Source of the DNA: Afipia sp.
GTDB taxonomy: Bacteria; Pseudomonadota; Alphaproteobacteria; Rhizobiales; Xanthobacteraceae
NCBI GenBank assembly: GCA_051653085.1
Contig: JBOFVL010000046.1
Coordinates: 5,749-69,748 of the forward strand
Length of the DNA: 64,000 nt
Direction of reading: 5' to 3'
The notes below the pieces were generated by a model. The model saw nothing but the letters and a program-made list of their open reading frames with translations. It ran no database searches and had not been told where the DNA came from. Below, piece after piece: positions 11,092 to 60,182 of this stretch. The first letter of the stretch is position 1, and every line of letters starts with the position of its first letter. The position numbers were made by a program, and so were the translations under genes.

Positions 11092-11256
11092 CTAGTGCGG
11101 TGGTTCGCAAGTCCGCATCATGTCTACAGCGCGATCCTTTGCGGACTTGCGAACCAAAACCACACTAGAATCTATAATTTCTGGTGTCCTTTTAAATCCG
11201 AAGTTCGCTTTGGAAGGTGCTGCAAAATGAGGCGAACTTCGGATTTAGGACACCAG
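11092..11256. repeat. Doublet of CTAG-ended bulged hairpin elements (units A 11092-11168, B 11181-11256)
   Basis: Each unit: 10-bp outer arm, 3-nt one-sided insertion (AAA or TTT), 15-16-bp perfect inner arm; units inverted relative to each other, 12-nt spacer. Confidence 0.85.
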
Positions 11257-11283: not shown

Positions 11284-12024
11284 ATGGCGGGGCGGAAATT
11301 GAAGAAACGGGGCAGGAAGACGGCAACGCGGCGCCTGGCGGCGAAGAAGCCGCAGAAGCGTGCCGTTAAGCCCCATAGCAAGGCGGCTGCCAAACCCAAA
11401 CCCAAACCCAAACCCAAACGCAAGCCCAAGAAGCCAGCAGCGGCTTCGTCGTCGGCCAGGACCCGGCGGCAGCTCGCAGCCCTGAAAGCGGAACTCATCG
11501 CTGCGCAGGCCCGGATCGATGAGCTTCAGGCCTGGGCCGACACCGACTTTTTGCTGAACATCTACAACCGCCGCGGCTTCGAACGGGAACTCGACCGGTC
11601 GATCGCCTACATCCGGCGCTACAAGGCGACCGGTGCCCTGATCGTACTCGACGTCGATCGCCTGAAGCCGATCAACGACACGTTCGGTCACGCGGCGGGC
11701 GATGTGGTGCTGAAAGGCGCGGTCGCGGTCCTGATGCGCCACGTCCGATCGTCGGATGTGGTGGGGCGGCTCGGCGGTGACGAGTTCGGACTGCTGCTGT
11801 GGAATCTGACGGAAGCCGATGCGCTGGCGAAGGCGTCGGCGCTGGAAGAGGCCATCGACCGGCTCACATTCGTGTTCAAGGGCCGCCCCGTGGTTGCGGG
11901 CGCATCTGCAGGCGTCGCAGTGATCGGTGCGACGGATGCGGCGGCAGATGTCATGGAGGCGGCAGACCGCGCGATGTATGCGCGAAAGGCCGCGCGCCGG
12001 GGCCGCTCATTGGCGGCGCTTTAA
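11284..12024 (+). CDS. Diguanylate cyclase (GGDEF) with basic Lys/Pro-rich N-terminus
   Basis: GRLGGDEF, RxxD I-site (RSSD) five residues upstream, DxLTxxxNRR-like 'DFLLNIYNRR'. Start uncertain (11269 or 11284). Confidence 0.9.
   Translation: MAGRKLKKRGRKTATRRLAAKKPQKRAVKPHSKAAAKPKPKPKPKRKPKKPAAASSSARTRRQLAALKAELIAAQARIDELQAWADTDFLLNIYNRRGFERELDRSIAYIRRYKATGALIVLDVDRLKPINDTFGHAAGDVVLKGAVAVLMRHVRSSDVVGRLGGDEFGLLLWNLTEADALAKASALEEAIDRLTFVFKGRPVVAGASAGVAVIGATDAAADVMEAADRAMYARKAARRGRSLAAL
11392..11419 (+). repeat. In-frame (AAACCC)4 microsatellite encoding KPKPKPKPK
   Basis: aaacccaaacccaaacccaaacccaaac read directly. Confidence 0.9.
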
Positions 12025-38959: not shown

Positions 38960-39001
38960 TTCTTATCGGACGATGTCCGAATGATATGGAACGGGTGCGC
39001 A

Positions 39002-39140
39002 GAAAAAAGGCCGGGCTAAAGAGCCCGGCCTGTTTAGTTTTTGGCCACGTGAGGCCGACACAATCACCTTCCAAGAGGGATAACTGAATGCGCACGCCGC
39101 TGGAGGAGGGGGACAATGTGCGAACGCGCTCACTCAGTGT
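39002..39140 (-). ncRNA. Candidate AbcR-like anti-Shine-Dalgarno sRNA
   Basis: 5' hairpin with CCCCCUCCUCC loop, second hairpin with UCCCUC, GC-rich terminator plus U6; own promoter; syntenic with lsrB/vtlR. Confidence 0.7.
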
Positions 39141-39146
39141 GAAGGG

Positions 39147-56169: not shown

Positions 56170-56256
56170 CGTCATGGCCGGGCTTGTCCCGGCCATCCAC
56201 GTCTTGATTGATCGCAAAGGAAGACGTGGATGCCCGGCATAAAGCCGGGCATGACG
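56170..56256. repeat. CGTC-tagged REP doublet
   Basis: cgtcatggccgggcttgtcccggccatccacgtc...gacgtggatgcccggcataaagccgggcatgacg. Confidence 0.88.
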
Positions 56257-60108: not shown

Positions 60109-60182
60109 GTCATTGCCGGGCTTGACCCGGCAATCCATCTTTTCGAAGCAGGATGGATACGCGGGTCAAGCCCGCGTATGAC
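60109..60182. repeat. (C)GTC-tagged REP doublet
   Basis: gtcattgccgggcttgacccggcaatccatc...gatggatacgcgggtcaagcccgcgtatgac; same family as 56170. Confidence 0.85.

Follow-up and report, generated by a model that had tools for sequence, protein, structure and literature searches.

RUP elements of Streptococcus pneumoniae are IS630-type MITEs, which are short, lack a transposase gene, have repeats resembling those of an IS630-family IS, target TA, are dispersed in intergenic regions, fold into a stable stem-loop and are represented by both empty and filled sites. The Correia elements (CREE) of Neisseria are approximately 100–155 bp in length and combine terminal inverted repeats of 26 bp and a duplicated TA target with an IHF site at the centre; many copies adjoin genes, and the host is not known to encode a cognate transposase. 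The features of RUP recur in Nezha, an IS630-type MITE of cyanobacteria (PMC3184786). A further group of palindromic repeats, the REPs, are 20–40 nt long, bear a GTAG tag and depend on HUH transposases of the RAYT kind; in BIME-1 (RIP/RIB) and REPINs, a short linker that may bind IHF separates two unlike palindromes of inverted orientation, and the hairpins covary.

Here we analyse two pairs of hairpins (doublets) in a 64,000-nt stretch of an Afipia genome (hereafter the window), each of which we interpret, with a probability of roughly 0.85, as a copy of a non-autonomous MITE derived from an insertion sequence (IS) of the IS630 family, Tc1/mariner superfamily. Like RUP and Nezha they are short, lack a transposase gene, carry IS630-like repeats, target TA, are dispersed between genes, form stable stem-loops and occur at sites that are empty in other genomes. 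However, RUP and Nezha each consist of a single repeat-core-repeat, whereas the unit that multiplies here comprises two unlike hairpins set head to head and joined by a fixed AT-rich linker, and there is no sequence relationship to RUP or Nezha. Correia elements lack the inner second pair of repeats, belong to a different host lineage and, from their description, are unrelated in sequence. The inverted pairing of two unlike palindromes recalls BIME-1 and REPINs, but the arms in the window are repeats of a DDE-type IS accompanied by target duplication. RUP and Nezha, as IS630-type MITEs, are the closest relatives, together with Correia elements as regards general design. The likeness to BIME-1 and REPINs is architectural only. 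The literature searched by sequence strings and keywords, which did not extend to ISfinder, contained no description of the double-hairpin family, and the known repeats of Bradyrhizobium (Br-REP1/2, GTAG-14 and CGTC REPs) were rejected as its identity because their sequences differ.

The two doublets in the window

A preliminary description of the window had placed two hairpins of ~76 nt, in opposite orientation and 12 nt apart, at 11092–11256 (locus 1), with a second doublet at 39238–39386 (locus 2). Inspection of the sequence bore out the coordinates and anatomy of the first doublet and the presence of the second, the first unit of which is partly deleted (Table 1). The outer stem of each unit is 10 bp long and ends in CTAG (CTGG/CCAG in H2); a bulge of 3 nt on one side (TTT, in the 5' arm) separates it from a perfect inner stem of 16–17 bp. 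Both doublets have the order unit(-), spacer, unit(+), the bulged arms (with the TTT insertion set on the 5' arm) facing the spacer. Folding energies lay well outside those of shuffled sequences, with DNA z-scores of -6.5 for H1, -10.5 for H2, -3.3 for H3 and -6.2 for H4. A covariance model built from the four units and scanned over the 64-kb window recovered those four only. The elements are 149–165 bp in length and contain no transposase gene, their sole open frame being a relic of nine codons; they were rightly described as non-autonomous, having no coding capacity, and must be moved by an enzyme encoded elsewhere.

Table 1. Positions of the hairpins and their parts at the two loci
Feature	Position	Strand	Details
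H1 hairpin, type B	11092–11168	- (TTT-bulge strand)	Outer arm 11092–11117 resembles an IS630-type terminal repeat
H1 inner-arm insertion, 3 nt	about 11157–11159		AAA on + strand
Locus 1 spacer, 12 nt	11169–11180		AATCTATAATTT; AT-rich; between the two inner CTAGs
H2 hairpin, type A	11181–11256	+	Ends CTGG/CCAG, a compensated variant of CTAG
H2 outer arm	11231–11256		22/26 positions as in Roseomonas IS630 right repeat
H3 hairpin, type F-like, decayed	39238–39299	-	~14 nt of inner arm and loop deleted
Locus 2 spacer, 12 nt	39300–39311		AACACTGGTTTG
H4 hairpin, type E	39312–39386	+	Terminal CTAG (39383–39386) gives TAG stop of lysR-family gene 39383–40312 (-)

Locus 1 lies in a divergent promoter region, and a 4.86-Mb contig of GCA_003427375.1 is identical to the window there. 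Its spacer is conserved in kind inside doublet sub-families. A TATAAT motif in this spacer (11173–11178) was considered as part of a bidirectional promoter, which was rejected because it lies 20 nt from the -35 and does not recur in the spacers of other doublets. The runs consulted for transcripts that contain the locus consist of contigs of flat depth with no strand information; word depth on the hairpin arms was approximately 10-fold higher, which is attributable to copy number. Short-read Logan contigs from other samples that contain the same purE (L002–L008) end 79, 99, 139 or 142 nt upstream of the gene, within H1 or at its far end, indicating that the element fragments assemblies. Nearby, an (AAACCC)n tract at 11386–11420, which encodes KPKPKPKP in the N-terminus of a GGDEF protein, shows huge word depths (up to 65,000) from unrelated runs.

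Several further features of the window were recorded in passing. Between the locus 2 doublet and a copper-ATPase gene lies a conserved sRNA-like element (38990–39210, - strand), which starts near CATGACTGACAT, includes the anti-Shine-Dalgarno-like GTCCCCCTCCTCCAG and ends in the terminator AAACAGGCCGGGCTCTTTAGCCCGGCCTTTTTT. Afipia, Bradyrhizobium and metagenome-assembled genomes (MAGs) have this element conserved in the region downstream of lysR, and its matches in Rfam are all sub-threshold. ARAGORN calls a 'tRNA-???' whose anticodon has two bases at 48428–48503 (- strand), where the Rfam tRNA model is negative at the gathering score. A second and unrelated palindromic repeat, CGTCATGGCCGGGCTTGTCCCGGCCATCCACG..., is present at 56170–56256 and 60109–60182; it is a REP of the type with a CGTC tag, as known from alphaproteobacteria (PMC3733652).

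Distribution and architecture of the family

A pattern derived from the loop and 3' arm was searched in IMG/VR, where it identified one further doublet, and in a collection of species-representative genomes, where it identified at least 115 loci; 111 of the 115 loci listed contain real units. Among the matches listed, the hosts include Afipia, Nitrobacter, Bradyrhizobium, Pseudorhodoplanes and many MAGs of Xanthobacteraceae and other Hyphomicrobiales. When the doublet was compared by blastn with all plasmids, the same architecture was detected in Roseibium and Labrenzia only; no record from Sinorhizobium matched, and the RIME elements of that genus were set aside as a candidate identity.

Doublets in '-+' order make up 89 of the 127 clusters among the matches listed, with a gap of 11–14 nt (most commonly 12–13 nt), and many of the units that seem to be single are in fact doublets with a partner hairpin of a more divergent type. 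We distinguished at least seven hairpin types (labelled A to G for this analysis), which differ in their stems and have in common the CTAGTG ends, the insertion in the inner arm and the loop motif, the ATG of the loop being absent from types F and G. The doublets are heterotypic, combining B with A at locus 1, F with E at locus 2 and D with C in many MAGs. They are found in both orientations, the spacer is kept within each doublet type (CAACTTATTGAT in the case of D-C), and neighbouring doublets have one CTAG in common.

The arms are far from constant in sequence. The compensatory changes reported in the preliminary description proved real and strong: in an alignment of 124 units from the matches listed, 98.4% of stem cells are paired and 20 of 26 stem pairs have been doubly changed, values reached in 0 of 500 shuffles, and G-T pairs are almost absent. 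Changes have occurred on both sides of the arms many times, even inside a single hairpin type. The loop had been described as variable, which is wrong, as it holds the conserved motif GGAnnGnGCTGyAnnnATGA. The inner arms always carry an extra TTT or TT between the terminal GTG and a conserved TC..A.GT.CGC block. In Rfam no family matched at or near the gathering score, the sole match being a chance similarity to mir-60 (E=5).

Relationship to IS630-family insertion sequences

The preliminary description attributed these repeats to an unknown enzyme and to a family that could not be named, and took a match to an IS end as refutation; comparison of the arms with known IS gave such a match. In blastn searches of annotated plasmids, the outer arm matched the ends of IS630-family transposase genes in Komagataeibacter xylinus and in Roseomonas mucosa (24/25 nt identical, 96%). 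For types A and D, the consensus of the outer arm agrees with the ends of five independent full-length IS at 22–24 of 26 positions; within the window the agreement with IS ends is 22/26 for the outer arm of H2 and up to 19/26 for that of H1. The full-length elements have CTAG followed by TGTCC(T/C)GA.TC.GAAGTT.. at both ends, and the ~25-bp termini common to these IS and the window elements read CTAG and then TGTCCYGAATCYGAAGTTCGC. The K. xylinus element is a complete IS of ~1.15 kb, beginning with CTAG and TGTCCTGATCGAGAAGTTT, continuing with a ribosome-binding site, an ATG and a 366-aa transposase, and closing with ...GCGAAACTTCAGAATCAGGACA and CTAG. IS with the same ends, likewise flanked by CTAG, are present in Roseomonas mucosa, on plasmids of Bradyrhizobium sp. 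CCBAU 53351, Nitrobacter hamburgensis X14 and Sinorhizobium meliloti, and on metagenomic or genomic contigs (L183–L188) at three different insertion sites. Proteins of these parent-type IS contain HTH_29/HTH_32 and DDE_3 domains, and we take the matching IS to belong to the ISRm2011-2-like clade.

The window elements differ from these IS in two respects. The IS are ~1.15 kb long and carry a transposase gene, whereas the window elements are 150–165 bp and gene-less; and the window elements contain four copies of the repeat, arranged as two hairpins with a 3-nt insertion in the inner copies. A tblastn search with three IS630 transposases, covering the window and ~0.95 Mb of loci that bear the element, detected no full-length cognate IS. 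Inspection of the translations of genes between closely spaced units at the listed loci revealed housekeeping genes only, and none that is transposase-like.

The relationship extends to coding sequence. In units of types A–E an ATG in the loop is followed by eight codons and by the TAG of the terminal CTAG, giving MxRTS(D/E)SGH and stop; in H2 this frame survives as ATG AGG CGA ACT TCG GAT TTA GGA CAC CAG. The transposases of the IS end in ...RTS(D/E/G)SGH-TAG inside the right repeat and in the same frame as the hairpin mini-ORF, with ...SETSESGH in Komagataeibacter, ...ARTSDSGH in Roseomonas and ...PMLRTSGSRH in Bradyrhizobium each terminated by the TAG of the flanking CTAG, and a C-terminal ending of this kind is present in 33 of 120 transposase homologues. 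This agreement shows that the last ~10 codons of a transposase gene survive as a relic in the 3' half of the loop and the 3' arm, the ATG of the loop being equivalent to a Met codon inside the parent gene. The variable columns of the stem fall at every third position, a periodicity which was inherited from coding constraint in the parent IS. In five of the full-length IS examined (L179, L180, L182, L183 and L186), the stop codon of the transposase consists of the duplicated target TA and the flanking G, so that correct termination needs insertion into a TA followed by G or A.

Target sites and mobility

IS630-family elements are described as inserting at TA, preferentially within CTAG, with duplication of the TA, in a source that cites the original work of Tenzen and Ohtsubo (1990/1991) for this (PMC2170065). 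Empty CTAG sites, for which a search had been advised, were found in two orthologous pairs, with a single CTAG where the site is empty and CTAG on both sides where it is filled. In Afipia massiliensis the empty site reads ...GGCAGA-CTAG-CCACAAAAG (CCACAAAAGACC; L090), while Bradyrhizobium has CTAG-doublet-CTAG between the same flanks (L053); the second empty/filled pair is L130 and L137. With a palindromic target, a 2-bp duplication of TA and a 4-bp duplication of CTAG are indistinguishable. Five elements have asymmetric end pairs (e.g. CTAG...CTAA, TTAG...CTAG, ATAG...CTAG), which weakly favour duplication of TA around an element with termini G...C over a 4-bp duplication, although the asymmetry may also have arisen by later mutation.

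Presence/absence polymorphism was confirmed at locus 2, where the doublet is absent at the orthologous site in relatives. The closest match of the window LysR-family protein is 97% identical and comes from another Afipia sp.; in that genome, as in A. felis, Bradyrhizobium and Nitrobacter, the element is missing at the lysR 3' end. The gene in the window ends ...RWPG-TAG (39383–39385, - strand), whereas almost all orthologues end ...RWPS-TGA; among the relatives both ...WPS-TGA and ...WPG-TGA occur, and the exact pre-insertion sequence is not reconstructable from them. It therefore seems that the lysR-family gene had its final codon and its stop replaced on insertion.

The unit of multiplication can be read from the copies in MAGs. 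One MAG contains seven whole doublets at different loci which are 93–99% identical, spacer included, and a composite in which a D-C doublet sits in a CTAG inside a G-F doublet is found at two loci of one MAG. This shows that the unit which multiplies is the whole doublet and not the single hairpin. Decay products are also present, in the form of a half-unit and a chimeric unit.

At several other loci (L113, L130, L131, L154 and L091/L128) half-units comprising the loop and 3' arm lie directly upstream of gene starts, two of them ending in overlapping stop/start arrangements; the half-unit of L131 derives from a full doublet through deletion. Such half-units may be exapted translation signals or simply products of decay.

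Genomic placement

Gene positions were taken from a self-trained gene caller run on the listed element-bearing loci, and at these loci no element lies inside a gene. The intergenic regions occupied are tandem in 71 cases, divergent in 26 and convergent in 11, in proportion to the total length of each class, which indicates that neither the 5' nor the 3' ends of genes are favoured. In 27 of 101 cases at the listed loci, including the lysR-family gene of the window, the stop codon of the facing gene is the TAG of the terminal CTAG. CTAG itself is 4.3-fold rarer at the listed loci than base composition predicts, and 52% of the CTAGs at these loci lie within the elements. This pattern of placement is that expected for a CTAG-targeting element under purifying selection.

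Proposed mechanism and alternative explanations

The preliminary description regarded the doublets as members of a non-autonomous repeat family, which stands, the family being dispersed, with presence/absence polymorphism and empty CTAG sites. It also assigned them by their fold to substrates of single-stranded DNA recombination or cleavage, which is not supported, since the arms are repeats of a DDE-type IS. We propose instead that an IS630-family DDE transposase acting in trans would bind the two outer arms as double-stranded repeats, excise the doublet and paste it into the TA of a CTAG with duplication of the TA. In the inner arms three additional nucleotides separate the cleavage end from the binding region, which would probably make them poor cleavage sites, so that the pair stays together. 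The AT-rich spacer may supply flexibility, or a site for a bending protein, with which ends ~165 bp apart could be joined; a single hairpin of 76 bp may be too short to join its own ends, while 165 bp with an AT-rich hinge would suffice. The hinge may bind IHF, for which the consensus is ATCAA-N4-TTR; one spacer type fits this and others do not. Among IS630 MITEs we found no precedent for the heterotypic doublet, the constant 11–14-nt spacer or the conserved 3-nt insertion, and the roles given to them here are inferred.

Under derivation from an IS630-family IS, the hairpins fold as a side effect of inverted repeats lying close together, and complementarity of the arms would probably be kept by template-switch correction of quasi-palindromes, a known mutational process in replication, rather than by a single-strand recombinase. 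The repeats of full-length IS are ~70–80% mutually complementary compared to 98% pairing in the hairpin arms, and neither this figure nor the double changes are predicted by a plain double-stranded-repeat model, since a tolerant transposase would not enforce them. Template-switch correction would produce such pairing without selection, but it should also erase the 3-nt insertion, yet the insertion is conserved and is therefore probably under selection. It is conceivable, if on balance unlikely, that the double hairpin is a working design in its own right, in which the inner arms, offset by the conserved 3-nt insertion, would serve either as non-cleaved auxiliary sites for the transposase or as structured ends (cruciform or single-strand hairpin), and pairing of each hairpin would be selected. 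If this were true, the family would be an IS630-derived element with propagation dependent on DNA secondary structure, a requirement that to our knowledge is not known for Tc1/mariner-type transposition.

The architecture could also be read as that of a REP/BIME or REPIN, in which folded single-stranded hairpins are cut and joined by a RAYT or an IS200/IS605-type HUH tyrosine transposase. Inverted heterotypic doublets around a short AT-rich linker do recall E. coli BIME-1 (REP Y, a linker with an IHF site, REP Z1), one of the spacer types, ATCAATAAGTTG, agrees with the IHF consensus in its core, and strong covariation, near-absence of G-T pairs and a conserved one-sided bulge are all features that such elements might show. 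However, the arms are IS630-family terminal repeats in which C-terminal transposase codons are still readable, filled and empty sites carry the CTAG signature of IS630, and there is no transposase-like gene between closely spaced units in the translations inspected. The units measure 76 nt with CTAGTG...CACTAG ends, compared to palindromes of 20–40 nt with a GTAG or CGTC tag (PMC3733652), and the REPs known from Bradyrhizobium (Br-REP1/2, GTAG-14, CGTC) are of different sequence; we consequently hold this reading to be very improbable. A further candidate is IS200/IS605 ends or PATE, which have two sub-terminal hairpins of the same orientation on one strand, lack inverted repeats and insert 3' of a tetra- or pentanucleotide without duplicating it. 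This was rejected because the two hairpins here are always inverted and never in the same orientation, and the arms match a DDE-type IS. Imperfect palindromes with extrahelical bases and a length similar to attC also raise the question of integron attC-like sites used by a tyrosine integrase. In integrons the R''-L''/L'-R' core sites stand at the 3' ends of cassettes near an intI gene. Here the ends are CTAGTG/CACTAG and the R''/R' core sites (RYYYAAC / GTTRRRY) are absent, the genes around the elements are housekeeping ones (purE, lysR, trxB and others) and not cassette arrays, and again the arms match a DDE IS, so that the attC reading is already contradicted by the sequence as it stands and we give it almost no credence.

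A function in RNA or regulation, whether as a UTR hairpin, a terminator, an mRNA stabiliser or a translated mini-ORF of nine codons which restores coupling, would account for the conserved structure, for the SD-like GGAG/GAAGG found 9–12 nt before the loop ATG with the frame open to the terminal TAG, for the survival of half-units directly upstream of gene starts and for the position of locus 1 in a divergent promoter region. Against this, the ATG and its frame are relics of a transposase C-terminus (e.g. ..PMLRTSGSRH and stop in a Bradyrhizobium IS) and the ATG is missing from types F and G; for the same reason of frame, a translated mini-ORF restoring translational coupling was rejected as the primary explanation. 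There is in addition no bias towards 5' or 3' intergenic positions and no match in Rfam, close relatives lack the element at their orthologous sites, and the stems contain Watson-Crick pairs only, as is typical of DNA palindromes. A primary role of this kind thus seems to us hardly likely, although individual copies may have been exapted secondarily.

Conclusion

With derivation from an IS630-family IS as the preferred reading, the annotation of the window changes in that a candidate 'new recombination system' is removed and replaced by an IS630 MITE with an unusual double-hairpin build. The family, missing from Rfam and now given a name, is widespread among Hyphomicrobiales, including Afipia, Nitrobacter and Bradyrhizobium, and its elements break short-read assemblies at their arms and often supply the stop codon of a neighbouring gene. 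It provides a natural test case for how short elements of Tc1/mariner type join their ends, and for how palindromes stay perfect.
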